A stretch of 64,000 nucleotides of DNA from Candidatus Komeilibacteria bacterium. GTDB lineage: Bacteria; Patescibacteriota; Patescibacteriia; UBA1558; 2-01-FULL-52-15. Positions 22,401 through 49,947 of the stretch are shown in pieces; position 1 is the first letter of the stretch, and each line of letters opens with the position of its first letter. The position numbers and the translations under genes were made by a program. The notes under the pieces are model-generated. The model worked only from the letters and a program-made list of their open reading frames with translations, did not search any database and was not told the DNA's origin. The stretch spans positions 6,018 to 70,017 of the forward strand of contig JAZDLR010000021.1 of the NCBI GenBank assembly GCA_043801745.1, in the 5' to 3' direction.

Positions 22401-24068
22401 CAATCATGCACTTATGTTTGTCAGACAAATTGGCAATGTTCAGCTTGGTCGGTTTGTAGTAATAGTCAGCAAGTACGCGGCTGTATTGATGCTAATAACT
22501 GTAATATTTTTTCCGGTAAACCAGCCGAGAGTCAATCCTGTATCAACCCACCTAGAAGCGGAGGTGGTGGGGGCGGTAGTGGCCCCGCAATTTCCGGTTG
22601 CGAGGAAAGGTGGGTTTGTAGCGACTGGACAAATTGTTCCGGCGGAACTCAGATGCGTGCCTGCACTGACAGCAATCAGTGTGGCACAGTCTTGAATAAG
22701 CCTCTTTTGTCTCAGAGCTGTCAGGCGGCTTGTAAACCTTTTAAGGTGTGTCAGGAGTGGTCAGCCTGTATAAATGGGAGTCAGATTAGGGACTGTCAGG
22801 ATGTCAGTAGCTGTGGCGCCACAGCGGATACGACACTCACCCGCGACTGCTTAAGTGATACAGCTGCGGATATTATTTCGCCGGAAACTTATATTTCCCA
22901 GGCAGCAGTTCAGGGAGATACGGCTTCAATATTAGTTTATGCCAGTGATAATCAGACACCTTCGGCCAGCTTGAAATTATTTTGCCGCGTTGATCGCACG
23001 GAGGAAACTCAGTGTCCAACTGGTCAGCGGGTAATTTTAAGAAATTTAGCCAACGGCAGACACATCATTCATATTAGCAGTCTTGATGCTGCTGGTAATA
23101 AAGATTTGACGCCGGCTGAAGCAATAATCACAGTCACTAATTTACAACAAATTATTACTATTCCCAAGTCGGGCCCAAGTTTAGTCAGGATATTTGATAA
23201 TTTAGGCCGCCTGCTGTCGCAATTTTATGCCTTTGCTGCTTGGCATAAGTGGGGCGGCAGCGTCGGGGTGATTTATACTAATCAAGGACAGGAAATTGTT
23301 GCTGCTGCCGGCCGTGGTGGTCCGCCCGAAGTCAAGCTGTTTACTAAGGAAGGGAATTTGCTTAGCAGCTTTATGGCTTATCCGGATAATTTCCGCGGTG
23401 GCGTCAACGTGGCCGTGGCTGATTTAAATGGTGATGGCTTGCAGGAAATTATTACTGCTCCGGCTAGCGGAACCGGTCCTTGGCTCCGAGTTTTTAAAAC
23501 CGATGGAACTTTGGTAGGAGAGGGTTTGGCCGGAGACAAAGATTTCCGCGGCGGTTTGAATATCGCGGCCGGCACTTTAGATAACAGTGGAACTGATAAA
23601 CTGGTAGTAGCGGCGGCCAGTAACGGTACAGGAGAGATTAGTATTTATTCCTTGAAAGATGGAATTTTAGCTCAGGATAAAATTGTGAAACTGGAAGTAG
23701 TAACAGCCACCGCTGGCATATCTGTTGCTATTTCTCAAGTTACCGGTGAGGAGCCGCAGATTATTGCCAGTGTGACTGAAGGTTCTAAGACGCCGGAGAT
23801 TTATGTTTATGCTGCAACTTTGGATTATGTCGGCAAGATTCTGGCCGGAGACGCGAAATTTACCGGTGGTCTAACGGTTGGTAGCGGGGGATTGCGGTCG
23901 GAAGCCGGAGCCAAGGAAATTATTTCCGCTATTTACTCACAAGCCCGCTGCCGCATAACTTTATATTCTCCCGGAGAAAATCTTAAAAATTTACAGCCGG
24001 TCAGAACATTCGCTCCTTATGGTTGGAGTCGGTTTAGTATCAATGCTGTTATCGGCGCGCTTTATTAG
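19428..24068 (+). CDS. Giant (1546 aa) membrane-anchored surface protein: GH-like TIM-barrel region, CBM4/9-like domain, LamG/DUF1080-like jelly-roll, 6 tandem ~42-aa Cys-rich W-x-C-S-x-W-S-x-C repeats, Ig-like region, FG-GAP/VCBS beta-propeller repeats
   Basis: N-terminal TM helix. 'DVAGEPEGWG'. CBM-like 'GWVKIDGD...WTEITKSFTT...VWFDDFSLIE'. 'YIGLRVSAGAHLRFDDLQVY'. Repeats such as 'NWGCSDWSACVNSLQTRTCVDANSCG'. 'ADLNGDGLQEIITAP' FG-GAP-like repeats. Confidence 0.8.
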   Translation: MVMKNNKQSGLFWRMASIIGAVLFLIFISRWAAARITKRRKMTLFGGVAILALAFVSFNVQGKYNDVLTVPAYLSDNTVKMATYQPTFHNALYWPFQSCYEGSCSGYHRTLPVGWPGDTTDSETIRSIGAESILYGDTGLNLYSEGTSADPAVMAQLDWAASVGMKVNMWDSVTDYYIRWGTYYSLPQIQIHINRVVELYASHSGLGGYDVAGEPEGWGASPIQREGMYARLGQVTALYKAADPNHRVYAGTASAAKMRFCREGRPTEWANSGFDSLRGGGALIDENSQEFQTNIENRIDLLDVDYLCTENYGIPFGFSLAANYWAGDSITPAETRMYIYLLLAHGGQGLEWFPYGTEGGLVWDNQAPDYTLNFSNWLPAMQGGLIYKDSQFKKPPGSSNVHYAVDTLEKHSGNYSARMDFSGVAGYNFNLRLFPPGDVSATWPPNFRGLKANTSYTMKGWVKIDGDADIQLKAIGPMIAGDGSDVNYAYSENLRGTHDWTEITKSFTTGATTGLFTFGPYSNSASTGSVWFDDFSLIETADPTQRNLAAKFNPGFETVTGADRTPREPLYSAVRTLNSELATLGPLMVSLKRISAFDDQKVPTKGLVNSVSSSVPVGQPRVEIGVFATADSNADYYLAVVNRNINSAATVNLVVNSAANLSLTDALTGASQNAVSNGTTASTVISLPAGGGKIFHLTGIKYNPPQKTLVYSEDFDDGAAQGWTMTGGTWTYVNDNDGKVLDVRDSSGLAYALDRAHVYDDLEYSGKVKIMSDHDMSYGVSPIDITFRKDPNDPSPGNNKYDMRITLDPGAESSVGVVELGRRDTGSTTWFCLLTDENFARGDRYVDFKIRAYGNRIEGYFDGTKYIDCIDNSGLGFSSGYIGLRVSAGAHLRFDDLQVYSLTAASSSCTENWGCSDWSACVNSLQTRTCVDANSCGTETTKPATSQACLPPCESNFQCDDWSVCSSQGGQTRACVDINSCDPPGVSPPTTQSCTYVCQTNWQCSAWSVCSNSQQVRGCIDANNCNIFSGKPAESQSCINPPRSGGGGGGSGPAISGCEERWVCSDWTNCSGGTQMRACTDSNQCGTVLNKPLLSQSCQAACKPFKVCQEWSACINGSQIRDCQDVSSCGATADTTLTRDCLSDTAADIISPETYISQAAVQGDTASILVYASDNQTPSASLKLFCRVDRTEETQCPTGQRVILRNLANGRHIIHISSLDAAGNKDLTPAEAIITVTNLQQIITIPKSGPSLVRIFDNLGRLLSQFYAFAAWHKWGGSVGVIYTNQGQEIVAAAGRGGPPEVKLFTKEGNLLSSFMAYPDNFRGGVNVAVADLNGDGLQEIITAPASGTGPWLRVFKTDGTLVGEGLAGDKDFRGGLNIAAGTLDNSGTDKLVVAAASNGTGEISIYSLKDGILAQDKIVKLEVVTATAGISVAISQVTGEEPQIIASVTEGSKTPEIYVYAATLDYVGKILAGDAKFTGGLTVGSGGLRSEAGAKEIISAIYSQARCRITLYSPGENLKNLQPVRTFAPYGWSRFSINAVIGALY

Positions 24069-34539: not shown

Positions 34540-35637
34540 ATGTATCAGTGGCTAGCTTTCGCCAGAAAATTTGACTGGCTGCTAACGGCAGCAGTTTTAT
34601 TTTTGATTTTTTTCGGTTTATTGATGATGTACAGCTTTGGACTCAATGACCCGGCCAGTCACTATATTCTTTTTAAGAAGCAGCTACTTTTCGCAGTTGT
34701 GGGCTTGATTCTCTATGCCCTGGTGGCCAATATGAATCACCGCATCTGGCAGACTTTTAGTAAATTAATCTACTGGTTATTTGCCTTGGTATTAATTTTA
34801 GTGGTTTTATTTGGCCGGACCATTAATGGCACCACTGGTTGGCTGCAGATAGCCGGCTTTGGTTTACAGCCAGTGGAGTTTGCCAAAGTGGCGGTCGTTA
34901 TTTTTTTAGCCAAATATTTTAGCCAGTACGCGCGGGAATTTTTTCTCTGGCGGCATGTCATTATTAGCGGCGCCAGTGTTCTCTTGATTGTTGGCTTAAT
35001 TCTATTACAGCCGGATTTGGGTTCGGCTATGGTAATTTTAGCCAGCTGGATTTTAATGTTGTTAATTGTAGGTGTGAAGAAATCTCATTTAGCGACTATT
35101 CTGATAATTTTTGTCGTAGTGGCTTTAGCCGGCTGGCTGTGGGTGCTGCAGCCGTATCAGAAGCAGCGTATTATCACTTTTGTTAATCCACAGTCAGATC
35201 CTTTGGACCGCGGTTATAATGTTCGTCAGTCGATTATTGCTGTTGGTTCCGGCCAGCTGATTGGCCGCGGCTATGCGCTGGGTTCGCAGAGTCAGCTGCA
35301 TTTCTTGCCGGAACCGGAAACAGATTTTATTTTCGCTGTTATTGGCGAGGAGTTTGGTTTGGTCGGAATTACCCTAATTCTGCTGGCTTATGCGGCGATT
35401 TTATATCGTTTGACGGTAATTGCCAATAAAACACGGGATAATTACGCGGCCTATTACTGTCTGGGTTTGGGCGCGGTTTTGTTGGTGCAGATTTTTATTA
35501 ACGTGGGAATGAACATGGGTATTGCTCCGGTAACGGGAATTCCCTTGCCCTTTCTTAGCGCCGGCGGCAGTTCCATGATTGCTATTTTGATTGCCTTAGC
35601 AATGGTCAATAATATGGGAGCGGAGAATAGGAATTAG
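34540..35637 (+). CDS. SEDS-family peptidoglycan glycosyltransferase (FtsW/RodA)
   Basis: Polytopic, 'GFGLQPVEFAKVAVVIFLAKYF', 'PEPETDFIFAVIGEEFG', 'IPLPFLSAGGSS'. Confidence 0.8.
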   Translation: MYQWLAFARKFDWLLTAAVLFLIFFGLLMMYSFGLNDPASHYILFKKQLLFAVVGLILYALVANMNHRIWQTFSKLIYWLFALVLILVVLFGRTINGTTGWLQIAGFGLQPVEFAKVAVVIFLAKYFSQYAREFFLWRHVIISGASVLLIVGLILLQPDLGSAMVILASWILMLLIVGVKKSHLATILIIFVVVALAGWLWVLQPYQKQRIITFVNPQSDPLDRGYNVRQSIIAVGSGQLIGRGYALGSQSQLHFLPEPETDFIFAVIGEEFGLVGITLILLAYAAILYRLTVIANKTRDNYAAYYCLGLGAVLLVQIFINVGMNMGIAPVTGIPLPFLSAGGSSMIAILIALAMVNNMGAENRN

Positions 35638-36476: not shown

Positions 36477-36587
36477 TTTGGTAGATTGGTAGTTTGGTAG
36501 TTGAGCGGGGCGAGTTGGAAAAGATAGTTTGAATTTTTTAAACCGTTGGGTGTGGGACGCTAAGCGTCCTAAACTTGGCGGTTTTTT

Positions 36588-36805
36588 GTTAACTCCCCTT
36601 GTCACTGAAACTCCCTCTGTCTCCCTCTTGTTAAGAGGGAGAACCTTCTCATAGCGTGCCCCTCTTGAAAAGAGGGGACAGGGGAGTTAGTAAGTCGAAG
36701 CCAGTTTTTCAATAACCCCTCTTAGTCTCCCCTTATACTAAGGGGAGAAACTCTTTATCAGGGTTTCCCCCTCTTAAAGTAAGAGGGGAACAAGGGGAGT
36801 TATTT
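36588..36805. repeat. Two tandem MITE-like hairpin elements (TIR TAACTCCCCTTG...CAAGGGGAGTTA; modules CTCCCC-loop-GGGGAG)
   Basis: TAACTCCCCTTGTC at 36588. Its reverse complement occurs at 36676 and 36793. Internal hairpins CTCCCTCTTGTTAAGAGGGAG and CCCCTCTTGAAAAGAGGGG. Confidence 0.45.
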
Positions 36806-36837
36806 GAGATAGAAAAACTCCGTAAATTTAATAGCGC

Positions 36838-36882
36838 CGCGCTTCTATCGATGTTCTGATAGATGCGCGGCGCTGTGTTTCT
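36838..36882 (-). terminator. Intrinsic terminator of the GC-rich island operon
   Basis: AGCGCCGCGC...GCGCGGCGCT 10-bp stem, then ATTAAATTTACGGAGTTTTT on the minus strand, just after the stop of 36900-37673. Confidence 0.55.
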
Positions 36883-36899
36883 CACCTCGTGAAGAGGTG

Positions 36900-37673
36900 T
36901 TACTCGGCGGTCAGATCGGCCAGGACCTGCCCCCAGTCCTTGCGGTCCTGGCGAACGTCGTCCTGCTTGCCGGTTCCCTTGCAGGTTCTGCACTTGCCCA
37001 CATCTTCGTGGCAGCCATTGCACTCGCCATCGACATACTCGTCGTGGCGCTGGCCGGAGCCGTGGCAGTATTGGCATTTGCCGGAGCCGTAACAGTACTC
37101 ACAGTCCTTCTGGCCGAGAACTTCGCGGTAGAAGGGAGTGTGCACGAACATGACCTTGGCCCCGTTGACCCCGAAGTTGGGCTTGAAGCCCTCACGATAG
37201 TAGGACGTTCCAAGATGATCGATGGCGGCGCTCATCGCGCCCTTATGGTGGTTGGTGTCCGTGACCATGGCCACGAACTTGGCGCCGACTTTGGCCGCCT
37301 TCAGGGCTATGATGAAGCCGTATGGCACCTGCTCGGCGGGATGGTAGGCCTCCGAAGCAAGCGTCTGCCTGCTCATCGGCATCATCATGTCGGTGAGCAC
37401 CACATCGAACGGGAAAGGAACCACCGACTTGGCTTCTGCCTCGCGGTGGGCCTTCCAGAAAGCCTTCCATTCCTCGTCACCACCATTCCGGTCGGGCGTG
37501 GCCGGGAAGCCGGCCTCGGTCATGAGGCGCGTGACGTTCTCGTCGTCGATCTTCTTGGCCATGAGTCCCATGGCAGCATCGAAGGAGTCGACGATGGTCA
37601 CATCGTGACCAGCGAGGGAGTCGCGGGCCGACTGACGATGCATTTCCTTGTCTTCGACCACCAGAATTTTCAT
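36900..37673 (-). CDS. Receiver (REC) domain protein fused to a DnaJ-type (CxxCxGxG)x4 zinc finger; about 60% GC
   Basis: 'MKILVVEDKE' acidic pocket and 'DVVLTDMMMP' phospho-acceptor context. C-terminus 'CEYCYGSGKCQYCHGSG...CNGCHEDVGKCRTCKGTG'. The antisense low-complexity ORFs are rejected. Confidence 0.6.
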   Translation of the reverse strand: MKILVVEDKEMHRQSARDSLAGHDVTIVDSFDAAMGLMAKKIDDENVTRLMTEAGFPATPDRNGGDEEWKAFWKAHREAEAKSVVPFPFDVVLTDMMMPMSRQTLASEAYHPAEQVPYGFIIALKAAKVGAKFVAMVTDTNHHKGAMSAAIDHLGTSYYREGFKPNFGVNGAKVMFVHTPFYREVLGQKDCEYCYGSGKCQYCHGSGQRHDEYVDGECNGCHEDVGKCRTCKGTGKQDDVRQDRKDWGQVLADLTAE

Positions 37674-37899
37674 CTCTTCTCCTCATTGCCCGATCAGGGG
37701 CGTGGGGGTTTACGAACTCGTTGTCTTGAAGTTTATATTAACCGCGCAAAAGCACGGTTGATGTTTAAAGAACTTTTCGGATCACTTGAGCATACTAAGT
37801 TTTAGTTACTATGCTCGAGTGATCCCCCCGTCTAATCTTTCGACTAGACGAGGGGTATTGCTGGCGGTCGCGTTGCGCGGCGCGGGTCATGATGGTCGC

Positions 37900-38313
37900 C
37901 TACTGCTTCATGATGAAGCTTTCGGCCGCCCACTTCCACTGGGGCGTGCCTCTCTTGTAGACTTCCACGAAAGCCCGCGGGATGTACTTCCGGGGACAGG
38001 TATAGTCGCCGGTAAGGGCGTGCCCTTTCCCCCAGTAGTGGATCGAGCCATCATCCTTGATGTGGGCGATGGCGACGATCAGGCCGTCGTTCCGGCGGAG
38101 CAGGTCTCCGACCTGCAGGCTGTCTACCTCGGCTTGAGTGATGCCGTCGGTGGAGTTGACGTCGACTGCGGCGGAGGCCGGCGCCGGGTGGGTGGAGTGG
38201 TTCTTGGTACTGTCGCGAGGCAAGATCCAGATGAACACCAGCACTGCTGCAATTAAGAATATGATCACAGCCTGAAAGGGCGTGAGACCCATATTCTTCG
38301 GGCTCTCTTGCAT
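37900..38313 (-). CDS. Membrane-anchored hypothetical protein, paralog 1 (C-terminal ...AFVEVYKRGTPQWKWAAESF)
   Basis: RBS AAGGAGAAAGAGTC-ATG. TM helix, then a Pro/Ala/Ser linker and a roughly 80-aa domain shared with the next gene. Confidence 0.5.
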   Translation of the reverse strand: MQESPKNMGLTPFQAVIIFLIAAVLVFIWILPRDSTKNHSTHPAPASAAVDVNSTDGITQAEVDSLQVGDLLRRNDGLIVAIAHIKDDGSIHYWGKGHALTGDYTCPRKYIPRAFVEVYKRGTPQWKWAAESFIMKQ

Positions 38314-38357
38314 GACTCTTTCTCCTTCTTGCCCATCAGCTGATGGACGGTGGAAGT

Positions 38358-38741
38358 TTACTGGGCGAAGTACCGTTCGGCAGCCCAGATCCAGCCCGGC
38401 TCACCCTTCTTGTAGACAGCGATGAACCTGGTGTCGACTTGGCCGAGCGGGCAGAGCATGGGGGCCGTGTGGTGGCCTTGGTACTCGATGTTGCCGGTTT
38501 TGAGATTCGACCAACTTGGCCGATACTCCACGACCATTGAGTCGGTAGTCAGGAACAGCTTGCCGGGTGTGAAATCCAGGAAGTCGTTCCTGGTGACCGT
38601 GACGGAATTGACGGCGACCGCGGCGGACACCGGCGCCGGCTGGGTGGGGCGTTGCATGGCCGCTATGACAACCCAGGTTACCAATCCCACAGCTATTGCT
38701 GTGCCTATCATGGCATACGGGCCGAGCATTTTTTGGCTCAC
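38358..38741 (-). CDS. Membrane-anchored hypothetical protein, paralog 2 (C-terminal ...FIAVYKKGEPGWIWAAERYF), GTG start
   Basis: An identical upstream block 'CTGATGGGCAAGAAGGAGAAAG' precedes a GTG at 38741. Same architecture as 37900-38313. Confidence 0.45.
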   Translation of the reverse strand: MSQKMLGPYAMIGTAIAVGLVTWVVIAAMQRPTQPAPVSAAVAVNSVTVTRNDFLDFTPGKLFLTTDSMVVEYRPSWSNLKTGNIEYQGHHTAPMLCPLGQVDTRFIAVYKKGEPGWIWAAERYFAQ

Positions 38742-39183
38742 GACACTTTCTCCTTCTTGCCCATCAGCTCCGTCGGTTGGCGGATGGCTGGGGCGGTGAG
38801 GGTAAATTGAAAACTGATTCCTACTCACACAACTGAAGACAGGAGTTGATTGCTATCAACCAAAGGTCAATAGCATGGGCTTTACCTCTACGAGAGAAGG
38901 AAACCCGGCAAACAAGATTCGGGCAGTAACTAGATAAATCCAGTTGCGGCCACAAATACAAGTTCGCAAAATATCAGCAACCTGCCTCCATCTGTGTGAG
39001 TAGGAACGTTTAGTGGAATTAATCGCGTCAAATCACGTTAAACGTGACTAGCGCGATTTTAGTTTCAAGGAACTGACTTTGAATTAGTCACTTCTAAGCT
39101 TTCAACCAGTTAAAAGTTTAGAAGTGAGGAGGAGGAAAACAGCTGATGCTGTCTGCCTCCTCCTTGTGCCCATACGATCGGGA

Positions 39184-39471
39184 CTAGACCGGGATGAAGT
39201 GGTCGTTGTCCGCGTCGTCCCATTCGTTGGGGTCGCCGCAGGACACGCCGGTGGCGGTCCAGGCGGGGAGGAAGTTGATGGTCACCGGCAGCAGGTCGGA
39301 ACAGGTGTCGGCAGAGACGATTCGGGCCCACCGCCTTTCGATCCGCCGGAGGTGGTTCAGGGTCCAGTCATCAACGCTGTTCCAGAACTTCCACCCCTTC
39401 TCACCACCGAAGCGGTGAGACTGGGGCCTGAACTTCTTTCCGCGGCCGGGCAGTCTGACGAAAACGCGCAT
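39184..39471 (-). CDS. Hypothetical 95-aa Trp-rich protein of the GC-rich island
   Basis: RBS AAAGGTGG-5-ATG at 39471. The antisense ORF is Gly/Val/Pro low-complexity. Confidence 0.4.
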   Translation of the reverse strand: MRVFVRLPGRGKKFRPQSHRFGGEKGWKFWNSVDDWTLNHLRRIERRWARIVSADTCSDLLPVTINFLPAWTATGVSCGDPNEWDDADNDHFIPV

Positions 39472-39651
39472 TTCTGCCACCTTTCTTTTGTGGAGGATGA
39501 CAAAAACCCGTGAAAAAACTAAATTGATCTCAAGGTACACTTTGTCGTATCGAGCGTTGCTCGACAGCGACTCATCTAAACTTACATCTCTTGATATAAA
39601 CTTGGATGAGCGCGCGAGTCCCGAAGGACCTCGCGCGGCGGAGACTAGCAC

Positions 39652-39819
39652 CTAGCGCCGGTTGATGGCCTTGATGATTTCCTGGGCCGAGATGTCGATC
39701 TGAGTGACGACTGCCAGGATTCCGGCAATCACGCCCGGCCCGATCAGGAAGTCGCACACCGGAAAAATCGCAGCGAACATGAAGCAAGTTGCTGACAGGA
39801 AAGCAAGAATGAAGGGCAT
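39652..39819 (-). CDS. Hypothetical 55-aa hydrophobic peptide (MPFILAFLSATCFMFAAIFPVCDFLIGPGVIAGILAVVTQIDISAQEIIKAINRR)
   Basis: Hand-translated. RBS AAGGAGACTATC-ATG. First gene downstream of the consensus promoter at 39899-39927. Not in the supplied ORF track. Confidence 0.35.
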   Translation of the reverse strand: MPFILAFLSATCFMFAAIFPVCDFLIGPGVIAGILAVVTQIDISAQEIIKAINRR

Positions 39820-39898
39820 GATAGTCTCCTTATTGGCGTCGCCCTATGGGCGAGCCGGTCAAGGTACGTCATAAGCTAACCTTAGCCTAGAATATAGT

Positions 39899-39927
39899 AT
39901 TATAGCACCAATTCTAGCCATTGTCAA
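39899..39927 (-). promoter_or_regulatory. Perfect consensus sigma70 promoter (TTGACA-17-TATAAT) driving the GC-rich island operon
   Basis: On the minus strand: cTTGACAatggctagaattggtgcTATAATact, about 70 nt upstream of the ATG at 39819. Confidence 0.55.
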
Positions 39928-39967
39928 GTAGGGGGTGGTAGGGGGCGGAAATGGGGGTTTGAGCACA

Positions 39968-40005
39968 AGAAAAAGCCCCTGTTTGGGGCTTATTGTTATT
40001 GATTT
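39968..40005. terminator. Hairpin AGCCCC-TGTTT-GGGGCT with T/A-rich flanks; likely terminator of the rpmE-prfA-prmC operon
   Basis: GC stem with T-rich tracts on both strands. Immediately 3' of prmC beyond the MITE. Confidence 0.4.
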
Positions 40006-40010
40006 TTTAA

Positions 40011-40170
40011 TACCTCACCCCAACCCTCTCCTTGAAAAGGAGAGGGAGGATGCGCGGAGGTTGAGTAGAGCGACTAGCTTTATAAATAGCGTTCCTCTCC
40101 TTTTGAAGGAGAGGACAGGCCTGCCCGCCGTAGCTCTGAAAGTAACGAAGAGCGAAGGCGGGTGAGGTAA
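40011..40170. repeat. MITE family A copy 1 (TIR TACCTCACCCC...GGGTGAGGTA; internal CTCTCC-TTGAAAA-GGAGAG hairpins)
   Basis: Terminal 11-bp inverted repeats. Homologous copies at 61644-61824 and 62227-62384; a related fragment at 59225-59300. Confidence 0.6.
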
Positions 40171-43692: not shown

Positions 43693-44313
43693 ATGCCTCT
43701 CTCAATGCCTAGAAAGACCCTTATCCGTGTAATTTTACTAGCTGCCTTTGTGGCGTCTTTTGGCTATCTTTCCTGGACTTCGGTCAGAATCTATAGTCAG
43801 TCGCTGCCAACAGCGGAAACGGCTGATCAGGCAACGTCAACCGATACAGACCAACCCTTGCAAGGAACTAATATTGCTCAAGCAGCTACCGCTAAGTCCG
43901 AAGTCGCGGCTAATCAAATCAATACTTTGCAGGTTGCTGCCATGAAAGTTGACAGCCGGATCTGGGAAGGCGCTGGAACTGCGACACTGAATAAAGGTTT
44001 ATGGCGCATTCCCGGCAGTTCCACTCCGGATAAAGGCGGCAACACCGTTATTGCGGCACACCGCTGGAAATGGTTGCCCACCAGTAAGAAGTCTTTTTAC
44101 GATATTGATAAAGTTAAAGTCGGTGACCAAATTTCTCTGCAGTGGGCCGGCAAAGATTATCAGTATAAGGTTTCTAAAATTAGCACTGTAACTCCGGACA
44201 AGGTTGATATTTTAAAAAATAGTGATCAGCCCAAGCTGACGCTTTTTTCTTGCACGCCGCTTTTTTCCAGCAAGTACCGCCTGATTGTTGAAGCTGATCT
44301 GATAACAACTTAA
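43693..44313 (+). CDS. Sortase (transpeptidase)
   Basis: N-terminal TM. Catalytic His ('VIAAHRW'), Cys in 'LTLFSCTP' (TLxTC), Arg in 'YRLIV'. Confidence 0.7.
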   Translation: MPLSMPRKTLIRVILLAAFVASFGYLSWTSVRIYSQSLPTAETADQATSTDTDQPLQGTNIAQAATAKSEVAANQINTLQVAAMKVDSRIWEGAGTATLNKGLWRIPGSSTPDKGGNTVIAAHRWKWLPTSKKSFYDIDKVKVGDQISLQWAGKDYQYKVSKISTVTPDKVDILKNSDQPKLTLFSCTPLFSSKYRLIVEADLITT

Positions 44314-44360
44314 TTTATTAAATTATTTATTAATTTTCGAGGAGGGTCGACAATAATTAT

Positions 44361-47300
44361 ATGAAAAAATATTTTCACAAGCTGCAGCGGACACTGACGT
44401 TGCTATCCTTGCTGGCTCTGGTCGTGAGTCAAGCGGGATTGCAATCAGTGCCTTTAGCAGGATTGAACTTGACTAAGAAGGCCCAAGCTCAATTAGCGGC
44501 ACCAGTAATAACTATTGGTGGCATGAAATGGGAAGATTTAAACGGGAATGGCGTGCTAGATAGTGGTGAACCAGGTGTTCAAGGGGTTCAGATTAATATC
44601 AATCAATTGCTTTTAGCTGATGCGCCGTCAATAAGAGGTTTATTTATTCCTACGGCCCATGCTGATTTTGTTTATTCCGCCAGTACCGTGACTGATAGTC
44701 AGGGTAACTATTCTTTTACTGATGTACCTCTGGGCGGTAGCTATGATGTTTGTGAAACCGTACCCTCTGGTTGGCACCAAACCTTTCCGATAAATGCTAA
44801 TAATAATTGTCATCGGATAAATTTAAATCTTTCAGAGACAGAATCAGTGACTGGTGCACCCATCTATGATTTTGGTAATCAACGTAATCAGGCTACTATC
44901 GTTGTTGATAAGATCGTTTGTCCGAATGAATCTGACTTGCCCAATTGGGGCGATCATTCTGGCGGCCCAATTGACGCTAATACCGCCGCTGTCTTTTTAC
45001 GGGAACATAAGGATTGTCATCTGGCTTCCGGATGGAGTTTCCAGTGGGCTTTCAATAATGTTGAGAATCCCGGAGATCAAACGGCAACATCAAGTGATTT
45101 GACTACCTTTGGCCCAACAGATGGCTCTGGTCGGACATCAACCCAGGTAGTACTGGGTGATAAGGACGAAATTAGGGTGCGGGAAGTTTTTCAGTCAGGT
45201 TATATACCGTTTACTGGTGCCAGTACTGCCGATAATGTCAGCGCGGAGATTTACTGTAATGATGATGTTCTGAATTATGATAATTATGATTATATCCGTG
45301 GTGCCAGCGTTGGCAACACATATTATTGTGTAGCCTGGAACGTGGCTCAATTGCCAGCCCAGCAGTGCGGTAATGGTCAGGTAGAGGGTACGGAAGTTTG
45401 TGATGAAGGTACGGTTAATGGTCAGCCGCTACATTGTAACCTTGACTGCAGCGGTAACACTCTACCGGTTTGCGGCAACCAGATTACCGAAAGTGATCCT
45501 TACGGCGCTGAGCAATGTGATGACGGCAATTTGAATGACGGTGACGGTTGTAGCTCAACTTGTCAGCAGGAACAGATTGCCTGTCATTCACCGCTAGACT
45601 ATGTCAATACTGAAGGTGTACTCGGTCCTGATCACGGATTAACTTTGAGCGATGCGGTGATTTTTACCCAGAGATACGAAGCAGCTTTAGGCAGTCACAC
45701 TGGTGATGGTAACTTTGATGCTACGGTTGACGTGAATAATGACGGTGCCATTACTGCAGCTGATTATCTTTGCACTCGGCCTTATTACGCTGCCAATGGT
45801 CCGTACACCTGTCAGCTAGATTGTAATAATATCTGCGTCAATCCTTTGGATTATGACCAAAACTATCAGATTACCTTGAGTGATGGAACTGAATTTACGA
45901 ATTATTACGAGAATAAAACTTATGCCACCTCTAGCGCCAGATATTTGGCTGACCTAAATGGTAATGGCGGGGTTGATTATGGTGATTATCTTTGCTCTTA
46001 TGATCAGCTGGCTATGGCTGATTATCAGTGTCCGATTAAGTGCGCCTCGGTTTGTGGCGATGGCACTATTCAGCCACGTTTAGGTGAAACTTGCGATGAT
46101 GGTAATCATATTGATTTTGATGGTTGCAGTTCTTTCTGCCAGACAGAAACTAATGAATGCCAGGAGCCGAATAAATTGGATTATAATCATGATTATCAGT
46201 TTACCGGCGGTGACGCAGTTATCTTTACCAGTTTTTATGAAGCTGATAATAGTCAGGCTGACGTCAATAACGACGGATTAGTTGATTATGGCGATAAGCT
46301 CTGTGCCAATAAATATTACAGCGCAGCCTTAGCTTATGTCTGTGATATTGTTTGTCCAGACTATACTCCAGTTTGCGGTGACACCCATATAGATGAGGGT
46401 GAACAATGTGATGATGGTAATACCACTAATGGTGACGGTTGTAATTCTAGATGTCAGAATGAACAGCTAATGTGTGTTGGTACTGGTACCTATACTCTGG
46501 ACGCTGATTTTGATAAAGGTACTTTGATCAATGTCGTGCATACTCCGAGCGATCAGTTGCAGTTAAGCAGTGAGATGAAGGCTTTTAACTTCATCTGGGT
46601 AGCCGTTTCTACCAAAGGAACAGTGGTGAAGATAAATACTGACACCGGAGCGATTATGGGCGAATATGCCACTAATCCGGCCTCACATGGCTGGGGCCAG
46701 GGCAATCCTTCACGAACGACAGTTGATAAAGACGGCAGTGTTTGGCTGACTAACCGCAACGATGTTTATGAAGGCGTTGGTTCAGTCATCCACATAGGAT
46801 TGGTGGAAAATAATCAGTGCCAAGACCGTAATGGTAATGGTCTGATTGATACTTCGACTGCCCAGAATGATATTAAGCCCTGGACCACTGCTTCGGTTTC
46901 GCCGGGTGTTGGTACAGCCGAAGATGAATGTATTATTCATTATGTGAAATTACCCAACTCCAGCGGTACTAGACACGTTTCTGTTACTGCCAATAATGAT
47001 GTTTGGGTGGCTGGATTATATTCCAGAAATTTTGATTTGGTAAAAGGTGGAGGTCCTGGAGTACCTGGTTCTGGCACCATTATCCGCAGTGAATCTAGTG
47101 TTGGTTATGGCGGTTATGGTGGTTTAATTACACCGAGCGGCGTGATTTGGTCCTCTAATCCGTTAATGCGCTGGGATACATCTGTACCGCTAGTAGCTGG
47201 AAATTTCCTCGGCTACGGACACGATAGCTATGGTTTATGTATAGATCCGAGTGGTAATGTCTGGAATACCTCACTATCCGGAGACCAAATACGGAAATTT

Positions 47301-48743
47301 GCTCCGGATGGTTCTCTGCTAGGAACATTCGGACATGGAAGCTATTACGCTCAGGGTTGTGCTGCAGCTGCCAACGGTGATATTTGGGTAGCTGGCTCTC
47401 TCTATGATACTGTGGTTGGTCACTTGAAAAATAATGGAACTTTGGTCGGTACTGTATCTGTGCCTTCCGGACCTACCGGCATTGCTGTAGATGCTAATGG
47501 AAAAGTTTGGTCAACGAATTACAATGCCGGCAATGTGACCCGTATAGATCCGTTAGGCGGAGCAATTGGTGGCGATGGGGTAACTCCTATTGGATCAGTT
47601 GATCTTACTACAGTTGGTTTAGGTGGAAATCCTTATAACTATTCTGATATGACTGGCAGTACCTTATCCGGCAGCGCCACTAACGGTACTTGGACAGTTA
47701 TTCATGATGGTGAAGTTTCTCTGCCCTGGGGTAGTTTGACTTGGACTGCTACTGGTTCACTGACTGTTACTGTTGCGACCAGTGAAGACGGTTCTACTTT
47801 TGGTGCGCCCCAGACAATTACTAGCGGTCAGGATCTATCCAGCTTAACCTCGCGTTATCTGAAGATTGTTGTTGCTTTCGAGCGGGAAGTTACTGGTGCC
47901 AGTCCGATTCTCTATGATCTGACAGTTAATAGACTTTGCGATCAGCCGCCGGCACCAAGCTGCGGTAATAGCGTTATTGATGAAGGTGAGCAGTGTGATG
48001 AAGGTGAAGTGAACGGTCAACCGGGACACTGCAATAGTCAGTGCTCAGGCATAACGGAAGCGACCTGCGGGAATACAATCGTTGAAGCCGGTGAGCAATG
48101 TGATGATGGTAATATTAATGATGGTGACGGCTGCTCTGCTAGCTGTCAAAGTGAGCAAAATCCGCCCACACCTCCTCCAACTCCTGGTCCTTCCCGCAGT
48201 GGCGGCGGTGGCGGAGGTGGTATGACAACCTTAGCCAGTTTGCTGGTTGCTAAGACAGCTTCTTTGCCTTTCGTTTCACCCGGCTCACAGGTTACCTTCA
48301 CAATTTCAGTTACCAATAATGGTAATGTGATTGCTACCAATGTTTCCTTGGATGATTCTTTACCGGCCGGATTTACTTTTGCTGATGGTGGCGGTACGGC
48401 CAAGACTTGGACCTGGGACACGATTGGAGTTGGTCAGACTGTAACGGTATCCTATTTAGTTAATGTTAGCTCTACCGCGTCTCTGGGCGTTTATTCCAAC
48501 ACAGCCGTGGTTAAATCCAATGCCGGAATCGTCTCAGCTCAAGGTTCGGTAAATGTTGAGGTCCGCAGCCCGCAGGTTCTGGGAGTGGAAACTGAAGTCC
48601 CGGCTAGCGCGGAAAAAGTCAAAGTTCTAGGCTTTGAAGCACTGCCTGATACTTCCGGTGACTGGAGTTACTTAGGAATCTTTGGCGCTTTGATCGTCAT
48701 GGGCCTAAGTATTTTCTACGGCCGTAAAGCTTTCCAAGACTAG
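44361..48743 (+). CDS. Giant (1460 aa) LPXTG-type (LPDTSG) cell-surface protein: signal peptide, 5-6 Myxococcus-type Cys-rich repeats (DUF4215; CGxG...E.CDDGN...GDGCS..C), dockerin/EF-hand-like Ca-binding loops, NHL-like beta-propeller, DUF11 domain, sorting signal
   Basis: Repeats such as 'CGNTIVEAGEQCDDGNINDGDGCSASCQSEQ'. 'DVNNDGAITAADYL'. Propeller 'GSVWLTN/NDVWVAG/GDIWVAG/GKVWSTN'. C-terminal 'LPDTSGDWSYLGIFGALIVMGLSIFYGRKAFQD'. Confidence 0.8.
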   Translation: MKKYFHKLQRTLTLLSLLALVVSQAGLQSVPLAGLNLTKKAQAQLAAPVITIGGMKWEDLNGNGVLDSGEPGVQGVQININQLLLADAPSIRGLFIPTAHADFVYSASTVTDSQGNYSFTDVPLGGSYDVCETVPSGWHQTFPINANNNCHRINLNLSETESVTGAPIYDFGNQRNQATIVVDKIVCPNESDLPNWGDHSGGPIDANTAAVFLREHKDCHLASGWSFQWAFNNVENPGDQTATSSDLTTFGPTDGSGRTSTQVVLGDKDEIRVREVFQSGYIPFTGASTADNVSAEIYCNDDVLNYDNYDYIRGASVGNTYYCVAWNVAQLPAQQCGNGQVEGTEVCDEGTVNGQPLHCNLDCSGNTLPVCGNQITESDPYGAEQCDDGNLNDGDGCSSTCQQEQIACHSPLDYVNTEGVLGPDHGLTLSDAVIFTQRYEAALGSHTGDGNFDATVDVNNDGAITAADYLCTRPYYAANGPYTCQLDCNNICVNPLDYDQNYQITLSDGTEFTNYYENKTYATSSARYLADLNGNGGVDYGDYLCSYDQLAMADYQCPIKCASVCGDGTIQPRLGETCDDGNHIDFDGCSSFCQTETNECQEPNKLDYNHDYQFTGGDAVIFTSFYEADNSQADVNNDGLVDYGDKLCANKYYSAALAYVCDIVCPDYTPVCGDTHIDEGEQCDDGNTTNGDGCNSRCQNEQLMCVGTGTYTLDADFDKGTLINVVHTPSDQLQLSSEMKAFNFIWVAVSTKGTVVKINTDTGAIMGEYATNPASHGWGQGNPSRTTVDKDGSVWLTNRNDVYEGVGSVIHIGLVENNQCQDRNGNGLIDTSTAQNDIKPWTTASVSPGVGTAEDECIIHYVKLPNSSGTRHVSVTANNDVWVAGLYSRNFDLVKGGGPGVPGSGTIIRSESSVGYGGYGGLITPSGVIWSSNPLMRWDTSVPLVAGNFLGYGHDSYGLCIDPSGNVWNTSLSGDQIRKFAPDGSLLGTFGHGSYYAQGCAAAANGDIWVAGSLYDTVVGHLKNNGTLVGTVSVPSGPTGIAVDANGKVWSTNYNAGNVTRIDPLGGAIGGDGVTPIGSVDLTTVGLGGNPYNYSDMTGSTLSGSATNGTWTVIHDGEVSLPWGSLTWTATGSLTVTVATSEDGSTFGAPQTITSGQDLSSLTSRYLKIVVAFEREVTGASPILYDLTVNRLCDQPPAPSCGNSVIDEGEQCDEGEVNGQPGHCNSQCSGITEATCGNTIVEAGEQCDDGNINDGDGCSASCQSEQNPPTPPPTPGPSRSGGGGGGGMTTLASLLVAKTASLPFVSPGSQVTFTISVTNNGNVIATNVSLDDSLPAGFTFADGGGTAKTWTWDTIGVGQTVTVSYLVNVSSTASLGVYSNTAVVKSNAGIVSAQGSVNVEVRSPQVLGVETEVPASAEKVKVLGFEALPDTSGDWSYLGIFGALIVMGLSIFYGRKAFQD

Positions 48744-48766
48744 GTAAGAGATTAGTTAAGCAATAA

Positions 48767-48800
48767 ACAGAGCTCCTGCGGGGGCTCTGTTTGGTTTTAT
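48767..48800 (+). terminator. Rho-independent terminator
   Basis: ACAGAGCTCC-TGCG-GGGGCTCTGT then TTGGTTTT. Confidence 0.7.
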
Positions 48801-48950: not shown

Positions 48951-49089
48951 AAAATTAGTAGGCGTTGATTAAACATTAGCGTTCTTACTTTAATCATATC
49001 AACTTCGGCAAAAAATTAACTACGGAAATTCAAAAGGACCCGTCCAGTACAGCGAGATGCTGCACCGGACGGGCCCAAGATGATTCGGG

Positions 49090-49947
49090 CTAGTTGCCCG
49101 GTTTCGGAGTCATACAGTTGATGGCCTCGATGTCGTCGAGGAACCGGTTGAGGAGTCTCACCTTTTCCTCCATCCGCTTGTGCGCCTGGAACCAGTTCGG
49201 CCACTTGGCATTGATCTGAATTTCAGCGGTGTCGAGATCTTCAGCTAGGGCAGCGATCGCGGCGTTCTTGGCGCCGGCCCGCTTCAGCTGATCGGTCATG
49301 CTGGCAACTTTACTCAGATCAGCCAACAGGCCCTGACATTCCATCTGGCTGCACTGAAAATCGGTTCTGGTCGTTCCCAGCTGCAGCTGCAGGTCTTCTA
49401 GCTGAGCCAGGAGACCCTGTTTGTCTTTCCAGGAAGCAACCTGCTGCCGGAACTCGTCGGCCGTGATGATGCCGGCCGCGTAGCGGCAGATCAAATTTCC
49501 ATTGACCTGGCCGTGCAGGTTGGCATCTTCCTTCTCCGCCTCGGTGTAGAGCGCGCGGGTCGTGAAGAGATCCTTGCCGATCTGGATTTCCAGATGGCCG
49601 TATCTGACGATCTGGAGTAGACGGTCAGCAGCCGGGACCCAGCCCCGGTCCAGGTTGATGCTGAACTCCATCTCAGAAGCTTCAACCGGAGCAATGAAAT
49701 TGTAGCGGTAAGAAGATGTGTTCTTGCCCGAACCTTCGGACACAATCACCTCGAAGGCAACCAGATGGTCACAGTTTTCCGTCGGCCGAGCAATGGTGAA
49801 GCTGTTGATCTCTTCAGTTCCAGGTTGAGCGCTGCAATTGCAGCTGGAACCGGAGAACCTCAGACGATAACTCTTCTTGGTCACCAGCTGAAGAACGTCC
49901 GTCGTTGAGGGTGACCTTTCGATAACCACCACTTCATTGGCTTTCAT
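49090..49947 (-). CDS. Hypothetical protein (GC about 55%, foreign-looking), C-terminal coiled-coil-like region
   Basis: 285-aa ORF with RBS AAAAAGGAGTACGGCC-ATG and a long 5'UTR from a strong promoter. No recognisable family. Confidence 0.5.
   Translation of the reverse strand: MKANEVVVIERSPSTTDVLQLVTKKSYRLRFSGSSCNCSAQPGTEEINSFTIARPTENCDHLVAFEVIVSEGSGKNTSSYRYNFIAPVEASEMEFSINLDRGWVPAADRLLQIVRYGHLEIQIGKDLFTTRALYTEAEKEDANLHGQVNGNLICRYAAGIITADEFRQQVASWKDKQGLLAQLEDLQLQLGTTRTDFQCSQMECQGLLADLSKVASMTDQLKRAGAKNAAIAALAEDLDTAEIQINAKWPNWFQAHKRMEEKVRLLNRFLDDIEAINCMTPKPGN

Follow-up and report, generated by a model that had tools for sequence, protein, structure and literature searches.

The gene pair and its products

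The subject of this report is a pair of adjacent genes in a stretch of 64,000 nucleotides (nt) from a Candidatus Komeilibacteria bacterium (contig JAZDLR010000021.1), which is called the window below. The first gene (43693–44313, + strand) is an open reading frame (ORF) for a sortase of 206 amino acids (aa). The second (44361–48743, + strand) is an ORF for a giant protein of 1460 aa, which ends in a cell-wall sorting signal and is the presumptive substrate of the sortase. The two genes are separated by an intergenic gap of 47 nt, in which a ribosome-binding site, GGAGG, can be read at 44341–44345 (+) and no terminator-like site was found. A terminator-like hairpin with a 13-bp stem and a T-run lies at 48764–48793 (+), 21 nt past the stop codon of the giant gene, and probably ends a two-gene unit. 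The window holds a single sortase and a single protein with a sorting signal. It is chromosomal and rich in housekeeping genes (gyrB, dnaE, thrS, gatB, prfA, prmC, rpmE, rpsB, tsf, gap and ftsW/rodA), with a GC content of 40–54%, and the order at the locus is rpmE, sortase, giant protein, rpsB, tsf.

Both genes are already in GenBank with automatic annotation, as MFH0874063.1 ('class E sortase') and MFH0874064.1 ('DUF4215 domain-containing protein') of a Candidatus Komeilibacteria metagenome-assembled genome (MAG). Candidatus Komeilibacteria is placed in the Patescibacteria/Parcubacteria group. The sortase is identical to P0241, named 'class E sortase [Ca. Komeilibacteria]', for which the GenBank start is the second Met (202 aa), and the giant protein is a 100% match to P0001. 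No paper was found in the literature on either gene, or on DUF4215 or Patescibacteria LPXTG substrates of this kind.

The 206-aa protein matches the Pfam Sortase family (PF04203) with E=9.7e-26 and 90.4 bits against a cutoff of 26.6, and TIGR01076 with 70.6 against 39.35. Its N-terminal membrane anchor, as read from the sequence, is at aa 9–28 (TLIRVILLAAFVASFGYLSW, 43717–43776, +), and this hydrophobic segment is kept in the clade alignment. The catalytic domain covers aa 79–203 (43927–44301, +), the stretch matched by Pfam. The protein contains one His only, H123 in IAAHR (44059–44061), and one Cys only, C187 in TLFSCTP (44251–44253), and alignment of the triad gives R196 (44278–44280) as the third catalytic residue, all on the + strand. 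H123, C187 and R196 are invariant in a clade alignment of 36 members and line up with the triad of the class C sortase 7d6p. The signature of the clade in this alignment is TSTPDKGGNTVIxxHR ... TLFxCTPLxSxKxRLVV. The initial annotation, made from the DNA alone, had described a sortase with a His/Cys/Arg triad and a TLxTC-like motif, TLFSCTP, and the model scores together with the invariant triad bear this out. In a scan of one genome per species 312 relatives of the sortase were found, and essentially all of them come from Patescibacteria MAGs. It should be noted here that many MAG records having a Patescibacteria-type sortase locus (L003-L010, L013, L018, L039, L040, L050) are titled 'uncultured Gammaproteobacteria bacterium', which is evidently a placeholder or a mislabel.

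The enzyme had also been called housekeeping-type, and in the class A sense this does not hold. There was no class A or class B model among the NCBIfam matches at E<=0.1, so that a 'class A housekeeping' label is not supported, and the cutoffs of all NCBIfam classes were missed. The sortase scored 88.4 bits with the class C model (NF033745) and 75.7 bits with the class E model (NF033747), both below a cutoff of 160. It scored 61–73 with the class D variants and 39 bits with TIGR03784 marine_sortase (class GN), for which the cutoff is 158. Its best PDB matches were class C pilus sortases at 55–58 bits (7d6p, 3rbi, 24rr), against 26–38 for class A SrtA and 29 for SrtE1. Class E sortases recognise LAxTG via a conserved beta3/beta4 Tyr (PMC5148588). 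The enzyme does resemble the actinobacterial class E sortase SrtE1 (PDB 5CUW) in its N-terminal membrane anchor, in the size of its catalytic domain and in the class E model being the second-best of its NCBIfam class scores. However, its substrate has Pro at P3, and LPxTSG is also found in the orthologues and paralogues of that substrate. The 'class E' label of GenBank is therefore rejected, both on the score of 75.7 against 160 and on a substrate with LPDTSG instead of LAxTG. The enzyme is an unclassified sortase of a Patescibacteria-specific clade, outside classes A, C and E as these are now defined.

The giant protein is built from many modules, all encoded on the + strand. A putative signal-peptide region, read from the sequence, occupies aa 1 to ~45 (44361–44495); it starts with MKKYFHKLQR, continues as TLTLLSLLALVV and ends in ...AQAQ. 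This N-terminus is 59–70% identical to that of the proteins at two orthologous loci, L083 and L084. It is followed by a CnaB-type, Ca-binding SdrD_B domain at aa 51–149 (44511–44807; Pfam PF17210, 48.4–52.5 bits against 29.7), which matches the PDB entry 10ps of SdrD with E=2.5e-5. After a second CnaB-like domain, described below, Cys-rich repeats of the DUF4215/TIGR02232 type are interspersed with dockerin-like Ca modules. Repeats 1 and 2 (aa 336–363 and 371–401, 45366–45563, by model and pattern) precede modules 1 and 2 (aa 408–488 and 492–561, 45582–46043), each of which is Cys-bracketed and whose loops are at aa 457, 497 and 531. Repeat 3 (aa 565–593, 46053–46139, by model and pattern) is followed by module 3 (aa 600–665, 46158–46355), with loops at aa 607 and 634 and weak Dockerin_1 and GC-dockerin matches, and then by repeat 4 (aa 672–698, 46374–46454, by TIGR02232 and pattern). 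Repeats 5 and 6 (aa 1201–1228 and 1236–1262, 47961–48146, by model and pattern) lie behind the propeller, and a Pro/Gly-rich linker seen in the translation, PPTPPPTPGPSRSGGGGGGG (48159–48221), leads to a CnaA-like DUF11/CLIPPER domain at aa 1294–1387 (48240–48521).

The family models support these assignments. DUF4215 (PF13948) reached E=8.5e-22 and 77.6 bits against a cutoff of 27, and TIGR02232 myxo_disulf_rpt reached E=4.3e-43 and 144.8 against 20.8, with six copies by pattern. Dockerin_1 (PF00404) scored 37.2 bits against 22.9 on the segment aa 401–560, and five 12-residue loops of the form D-x-[ND]-x-[DNG]-x6-[DE] are spread over the three dockerin-like modules. DUF11 (Pfam PF01345) scored 57.6–61.9 bits against 24.6, with E=1.9e-15. 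Thus, where five or six Cys-rich repeats had been proposed there are exactly six, and the dockerin-like loops and the DUF11 domain of the earlier list are also real. That list was incomplete, since every domain named in it is supported but SdrD_B (aa 51–149) and the CnaB-like domain (aa ~177–330) had been overlooked. The accompanying remark that such a mosaic on an LPXTG anchor is unusual has to be withdrawn, as hundreds of large Patescibacteria proteins mix SdrD_B, DUF4215, DUF11, the same unmodelled domain and LPxTG-type tails.

The repeats are like those of the Myxococcus Cys-rich repeat proteins (TIGR02232/DUF4215), with the form CGxGxxExGExCDDGNxxxGDGCSxxC. The dockerin-like modules are like non-cellulosomal ones, with duplicated 12-residue Ca loops and a helix after each. 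In contrast to both, they act here as spacers on either side of exchangeable modules, within a wall-anchored protein of the Candidate Phyla Radiation (CPR). A non-exhaustive scan of window ORFs revealed no cohesin. The DNA copies of the Cys-rich repeats are only 68–79% identical over 68 nt, so there is no sign of recent exchange mediated by the repeats. DUF11 has been renamed CLIPPER; it is CnaA-like and often has an intramolecular isopeptide bond, and some DUF11 domains are without it (PMC12617251). In the giant protein K1298 (in 'V-K-T' of the first strand) and D1332 align with the motifs of 9IFR, in a weak match (E=0.31) that stops short of the Asn.

The CnaB/pilin-like domain at aa ~177–330 (44889–45350, +) was delimited by alignment, an AlphaFold2 (AF2) model and Foldseek, and it has no Pfam or NCBIfam model. 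Pfam gave no match for the copy in the giant protein or for 32 homologous segments (33 members), and NCBIfam likewise gave none on the giant protein. Among homologues it is the most widely shared part of the giant protein, present in 80 of 119 matches. When 1.84 billion representative proteins were searched with a profile of the domain, 1087 matched at E<=1e-3 and 934 of these at E<=1e-30, which marks a sharply bounded family, and some proteins contain up to 4–5 copies. The signature of the domain is KIVC..E.DLPNWG ... WVREV..GYIPF ... VSAE.YC..DVLNYDNYD ... YYCVAWNV. K184, E275, N327 and four Cys are invariant in the alignment, the first three residues being on the first, central and last strands of the model respectively. 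The predicted local distance difference test (pLDDT) score of the AF2 model is 86.8. Its top Foldseek matches in the PDB are pilins and adhesin stalks (GBS52, UafA, Cpa, SdrD, SpaA and the Mobiluncus cross-linked adhesin), with E-values down to 9e-5 and TM-scores of just ~0.4. Judged by their position in the model, K184, E275 and N327 are a putative CnaB-type Lys-Asn isopeptide triad with Glu as catalyst, to which two disulfides would be added. With ~1,100 representatives the family is a candidate for a new Pfam entry, which would improve the annotation of CPR surface proteins.

The payload of the protein (46473–47939, +) is a 7-bladed beta-propeller of the YVTN/NHL/SGL type (aa ~705–1100) followed by a beta-sandwich (aa ~1104–1192), as defined by Pfam, AF2 and Foldseek. 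SGL scored 44.5–48.9 bits on the propeller against a cutoff of 26.3, there are seven 'G-x-V/I-W' blade motifs, and the AF2 model of propeller plus beta-sandwich has a pLDDT of 91.8. The best solved match in a Foldseek search of the PDB was 1l0q, an archaeal S-layer protein with a YVTN propeller and PKD (1.3e-13), and 7-bladed designer propellers were matched as well. The propeller of about seven blades that had been proposed initially is therefore well founded. Like 1L0Q and the 'streptogramin lyase-like' (COG4257-type) proteins, the giant protein is a cell-surface protein with a 7-bladed YVTN/NHL-type propeller and then an Ig-like or beta-sandwich domain. Vgb_lyase (PF24684) scored 44.8 bits against 50, and NF000022 and NF000096 scored 22 and 16 bits against 600. 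Since Vgb_lyase remains below its cutoff, 'streptogramin lyase' is not a fitting name for the propeller, and an identity as virginiamycin B (streptogramin) lyase is not supported by these family models.

Along ~98% of its length, the segment aa 705–1200 shows an identity of 53–61% with over 900 secreted proteins (~600–870 aa) from Myxococcota, Chloroflexota, Desulfobacterota, Armatimonadota and Patescibacteria. This family (proteins P0121-P0240) goes by the JGI name 'streptogramin lyase' and has no dedicated Pfam family. About 90 positions of the propeller module (~490 aa) are invariant across it. Most stand-alone members have an extra C-terminal domain (...GRVYHI.FTA.D...GVPHD...GPLYDST), which the giant protein does not have. 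In contrast to the stand-alone family, the module is embedded here between Cys-rich repeats on a stalk with a sortase anchor. The same module is found on a DUF11/CLIPPER plus VLGAETLPVTGG anchor in other Patescibacteria (P0122, P0123, P0135).

The sorting signal (48642–48740, +), identified by its motif and by TIGR01167, consists of LPDTSG (48642–48659), a hydrophobic segment (48660–48722) and the tail RKAFQD. The C-terminus thus reads VLGFEA, L1428-PDTSG-1433, 21 hydrophobic residues and RKAFQD. The pattern VLGFE(K/E/T/A)LP(D/N/E/A)TSG, followed by a hydrophobic stretch and a basic end, is kept in homologues. Within the clade the large adhesins have LPxT-S-G and the neighbouring small or related proteins have LPxT-(D/N/G)-G, and distant Patescibacteria have LPxTG or LAxTG. 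Variant residues after the scissile Thr are known in other sortase systems, e.g. LPxTA/S, NPQTN and LPQTxE. LPxTSG is therefore one more variant of a familiar scheme, not a new principle. Two copies of the sequence 'VLG(x)E' directly precede the sorting motif (PQVLGVETE ... KVKVLGFEALPDTSG; window 48579–48659, aa 1407–1433), and in many proteins of distant Patescibacteria this sequence also stands ahead of LPxTG. It could represent the final strand of CLIPPER, or it could help the sortase clade to recognise its substrates as an extended element.

Pairing of the sortase with the giant protein

The arrangement of sortase and adhesin genes is preserved at two orthologous, syntenic loci. L084 contains rpmE, a sortase 75% identical to the present one, and an adhesin; L083 contains a sortase (67% identical), an adhesin, rpsB, tsf and gap. 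The L083 adhesin ends in LPATSGDWNYLG...YGRKAFRA, and its tail, VLGFETLPATSGDWNYLGIVGAFMILILSVVYGRKAFRA, is nearly identical to the tail encoded in the window. Paralogous three-gene cassettes were found in six further genomes (L001/L007, L002/L008, L004, L006, L009, L010), in which the flanking genes differ. Their order is a small (190–220 aa) DUF11-like protein ending in LPxT(D/G)G, the sortase, and a PA14 adhesin of ~1000–1100 aa ending in VKVLGFEKLP(D/N/E)TSG; in L001/L007 and L002/L008 the sortase is followed by an SdrD_B-DUF4215-PA14-CLIPPER protein ending in LPNTSG or LPDTSG. Adjacency is thus kept in at least eight related loci, flanking genes notwithstanding. A dockerin/DUF4215 protein and a CAP-domain protein are often encoded downstream of the three-gene cassettes.

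The association also holds statistically. A sorting signal was present on 27 of 84 sortase-adjacent ORFs and on 7 of 1376 non-adjacent ORFs of the same loci, an enrichment of ~60-fold. Of the 69 loci in the survey where a sortase ORF could be recognised, 22 have a sorting-signal gene directly beside it on the same strand. In three proteins (P0021, P0029, P0079) enzyme and substrate are fused into a single ORF, which consists of an SdrD_B/DUF11 protein, VLGVLPHTGEG, a transmembrane segment (TM), RTVVKTR, a second TM and a sortase domain of the clade. In this topology of motif, TM, basic loop, TM and sortase, the motif and the catalytic domain would both be outside the cell. P0031 was also listed with the apparent substrate-sortase fusions.

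Synteny, paralogous cassettes, statistical enrichment and Rosetta-stone fusions are four independent lines of evidence that the pairing is real. It is very probable that the sortase and the 1460-aa protein are an enzyme-substrate pair. The proposal that the sortase directly precedes its presumptive substrate is in agreement with all four and with the 47-nt gap. Coincidental adjacency, in which the sortase serves other substrates and is a mere neighbour of the giant gene, is very improbable. In its favour one can cite the restriction of the analysis to a single genome window and the existence of P0002 (MFH0873649.1), a further protein with LPDTSG. P0002 shares 70% identity with the giant protein in the dockerin/Cys-repeat block, and its accession number suggests that its gene lies at another place in what is apparently the same MAG. 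The adjacency in related loci, the enrichment and the fusions speak against coincidence.

Our data indicate, with a probability of about 0.8, that the locus is a two-gene unit of a membrane-anchored sortase and its own cis-encoded, wall-anchored substrate. The sortase and giant genes would be co-transcribed, which we infer because the gap is 47 nt, a GGAGG site is present and a hairpin terminator follows only the second gene. The features of its sequence suggest that the giant protein would be exported by the Sec pathway via the N-terminal signal peptide and held in the membrane by the C-terminal hydrophobic segment and the RK tail. By analogy with the established sortase mechanism, the H123/C187/R196 enzyme would cut LPDT|SG after Thr1431, form a thioacyl intermediate and transfer the protein to an amine of the peptidoglycan precursor. 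The stalk would consist of SdrD_B, the CnaB-like domain with its K-E-N triad, CLIPPER, the disulfide-rich DUF4215 repeats and the three Ca-binding dockerin-like modules. It would be stabilised by Ca and disulfides, and probably by isopeptide bonds too, and would carry the propeller and beta-sandwich as payload. A gene for the peptidoglycan polymerase FtsW/RodA lies at 34540–35637 within the window, so the organism makes peptidoglycan. Covalent anchoring to the wall specifically is likely, if a little less secure than the two-gene unit as such.

Several observations weigh against this reading. No curated class cutoff is reached by the sortase, so its specificity and its acceptor cannot be taken from a characterised class. 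The residue after the scissile Thr1431 is Ser1432, where canonical signals have Gly, and T-S-G is kept in the clade. TIGR01167 gave 16.8 for a 42-aa tail and 15.5 for a 60-aa tail against a cutoff of 15.9, and Pfam Gram_pos_anchor (PF00746) rejected the tail with 11.1 against 20. The sorting signal of the initial annotation is therefore accepted in part: the tripartite tail is present and conserved in homologues, but its motif is LPxT-S-G rather than the canonical LPxTG and the anchor models are marginal. Similar LPxTG proteins are found in some Patescibacteria without an adjoining sortase (L089). Little is known of how the cell envelope of CPR bacteria is built (PMC5220378). With regard to the payload, the gene neighbourhoods of stand-alone propeller members (Myxococcales, Desulfobacula, Patescibacteria) have nothing in common and gave no functional clue. 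The propeller module is also far more conserved (53–61% across phyla) than typical adhesin heads, which points to a role in ligand binding or catalysis that is under strong constraint.

The arrangement is the familiar Gram-positive one, the sortase anchoring of fibrillar adhesins. It shares with SrtA/SdrD-type anchoring in Staphylococcus aureus the sortase fold, the His-Cys-Arg triad and the TLxTC-like motif. The substrates are also alike, with a signal peptide, a stalk of CnaB/CnaA-type domains including a true SdrD_B, and a C-terminal LPxT-type motif with hydrophobic segment and basic tail. The two systems differ in that the organism here belongs to the CPR/Patescibacteria, the sortase is below every class cutoff and unmatched by class A models, and the motif is LPxTSG with Ser at P1'. 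Moreover, enzyme and substrate form a dedicated gene pair here, whereas SrtA is one housekeeping enzyme with many scattered substrates. Dedicated pairs with one sortase gene beside one or two cognate substrates of variant motif are known from SrtB-IsdC and the class GN 'marine' sortases, but these belong to other sortase clades and have another substrate architecture.

Role of the payload and alternative readings

A role of the giant protein as a host or particle adhesin is plausible, and the high conservation of the propeller module would suit catalysis or another tightly constrained function just as well. The payload may act as a ligand or host-binding module, which we put forward tentatively, at somewhat under even odds. 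It is possible, though on balance unlikely, that propeller and beta-sandwich are instead a surface-displayed enzyme, a lactonase- or lyase-like catalyst of the SGL/Vgb superfamily that is tethered in order to process host or environmental compounds. The similarity to Pfam SGL and Vgb_lyase and the PDB matches to Vgb lyase and regucalcin are consistent with catalysis, and the identity to the more than 900 secreted proteins with their ~90 invariant positions is a constraint more enzyme-like than adhesin-tip-like. On the other hand, the Vgb_lyase and NCBIfam Vgb models were missed by the margins given above, and the archaeal S-layer propeller that heads the fold matches is not an enzyme. It was not possible to assign catalytic residues in the propeller module, and no conserved metabolic neighbourhood was seen among the family members surveyed. 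The exchange partner of the propeller at the orthologous locus, moreover, is PA14, a carbohydrate-binding module.

This exchange is evident when the orthologous loci are compared. The L083 and L084 adhesins share with the giant protein the signal peptide (59–70% identity), SdrD_B, two dockerin-like modules (61%) and the terminal repeats, and CLIPPER together with the sorting tail is 71% identical. They have PA14 between SdrD_B and the dockerins, and they are without the CnaB-like domain, the third dockerin module and the propeller. The giant protein is a lineage-specific mosaic, in which a conserved chassis is combined with a block paralogous to P0002 and with a copy of the widespread propeller that has been inserted, its modules being bracketed by Cys-rich repeats. 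The presence of PA14 in the loci of relatives means that the payload is exchangeable, and it suggests a diversification, through this locus, of what is bound or processed at the cell surface. Population genomes could be searched for an association of host range with the swap of PA14 and propeller at this syntenic site.

The three-gene cassette of relatives could be a sortase-built fibre, and a pilus or fibre has to be considered for the present locus too. A class C-like sortase would then join the giant protein as tip adhesin to a small pilin-like subunit, either in place of a direct link to the wall or ahead of wall attachment. Class C pilus sortases are the nearest to our enzyme both in NCBIfam and in the PDB, and, as here, a substrate gene stands beside the enzyme. 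The cassettes of relatives, like class C pilin operons, hold a small Ig-like LPxTxG protein: in the closest paralogous ones the small DUF11-like LPxT(D/G)G protein is upstream and the large LPxTSG adhesin downstream of the sortase. The best structural matches of the unmodelled domain are Gram-positive pilins. However, a small pilin gene of the kind found in class C operons was not found at this locus, and tblastn of the window with six cassette proteins matched only the giant protein's own DUF11, which weakens a pilus model here. Inspection of the sequence shows that the sortase, unlike class C enzymes, is without a DPF/DPW/DPY lid motif and without a C-terminal TM, as it ends 10 residues past R196. 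The class C cutoff was missed (88 against 160), and a YPKN-type pilin motif was not identified. We therefore regard pilus assembly at this locus as improbable. There is a broader speculation, to which we would give only slightly more credit. The Patescibacteria-specific sortase clade with LPxT(S/D/N)G could be a new class that builds covalently anchored fibres, in some genomes polymerised with the small CLIPPER protein, with interchangeable heads. The head at the rpmE-rpsB locus (PA14 in some Komeilibacteria, dockerin plus propeller here) would set the host or substrate to which the episymbiont attaches, and in that case payload swapping at this locus would be a genomic marker of host range.

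It is equally improbable that the giant protein is not anchored to the wall at all. The C-terminal helix would then be a plain membrane anchor, or the sortase a releasing protease, or the acceptor something other than peptidoglycan, such as an S-layer component or a lipid. Such alternatives are conceivable because CPR bacteria have a different envelope from Firmicutes and Actinobacteria, and the structure of the CPR envelope is unresolved (PMC5220378). The motif is also non-canonical and marginal for anchor models, and the sortase is outside the curated classes. Against this stand the tripartite signal, strictly conserved with an invariant T-S-G in orthologues and paralogues, the intact sortase triad, the presence of peptidoglycan synthesis genes and a fusion topology that fits cleavage outside the membrane.

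Anchoring of the giant protein by its neighbouring sortase does not overturn current understanding, as an enrichment of sortases and giant surface proteins in CPR has been recognised before. The sortase family is found in more than half of CPR genomes (PMC6744442), and CPR surface proteins with propellers and sortase motifs have been described (PMC5220378). What is new is modest: a clade-specific LPxTSG signal, dedicated pairing in cis including fusions, a syntenic payload swap and a sizeable unmodelled domain family. How the ultrasmall CPR/Patescibacteria attach to hosts or particles is largely unknown, and work so far has been mainly on type IV pili and the newly described Pam pili. The latter, described in a 2026 preprint on CPR, are a chaperone-usher-like system unrelated to sortases. 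The small sortase domain and the defined LPDTSG peptide (GFEALPDTSGDWS) make up a testable pair for covalent wall anchoring in CPR.

Other features of the window

Scans of the window for tRNA genes and Rfam families gave no matches, and no integration-site or RNA feature could be tied to the locus. Between the adhesin gene and rpsB lies an ORF of 285 aa (49090–49947, − strand) with a hairpin at 49076–49036, a raised local GC content of 51.5% and a sub-threshold Phage_scaffold match as its one family match. At the same spot the syntenic locus L083 contains no more than an ORF of 91 aa, so the 285-aa ORF looks like a lineage-specific insertion.

A stretch of ~3.6 kilobases at ~36500–40150 may be an acquired island: its GC content is 52–54%, compared with ~44% in the surroundings, and Pfam recognises no genes in it. 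One of its ORFs, of 257 aa (36900–37673, −), has a receiver-like N-terminus and a CxxC-rich C-terminus, and the stretch also encodes two paralogous small membrane proteins (37900–38313 and 38358–38828, −) with a common C-terminus, ...VYK.G.P.W.WAAE.... A second giant protein, of 1546 aa, is encoded at 19428–24068 (+). It matches LamG-like 3-keto-disaccharide hydrolase, CBM_4_9 and FG-GAP, has an N-terminal membrane anchor and is without a C-terminal sorting signal, and it is probably a further surface protein that is independent of the sortase.

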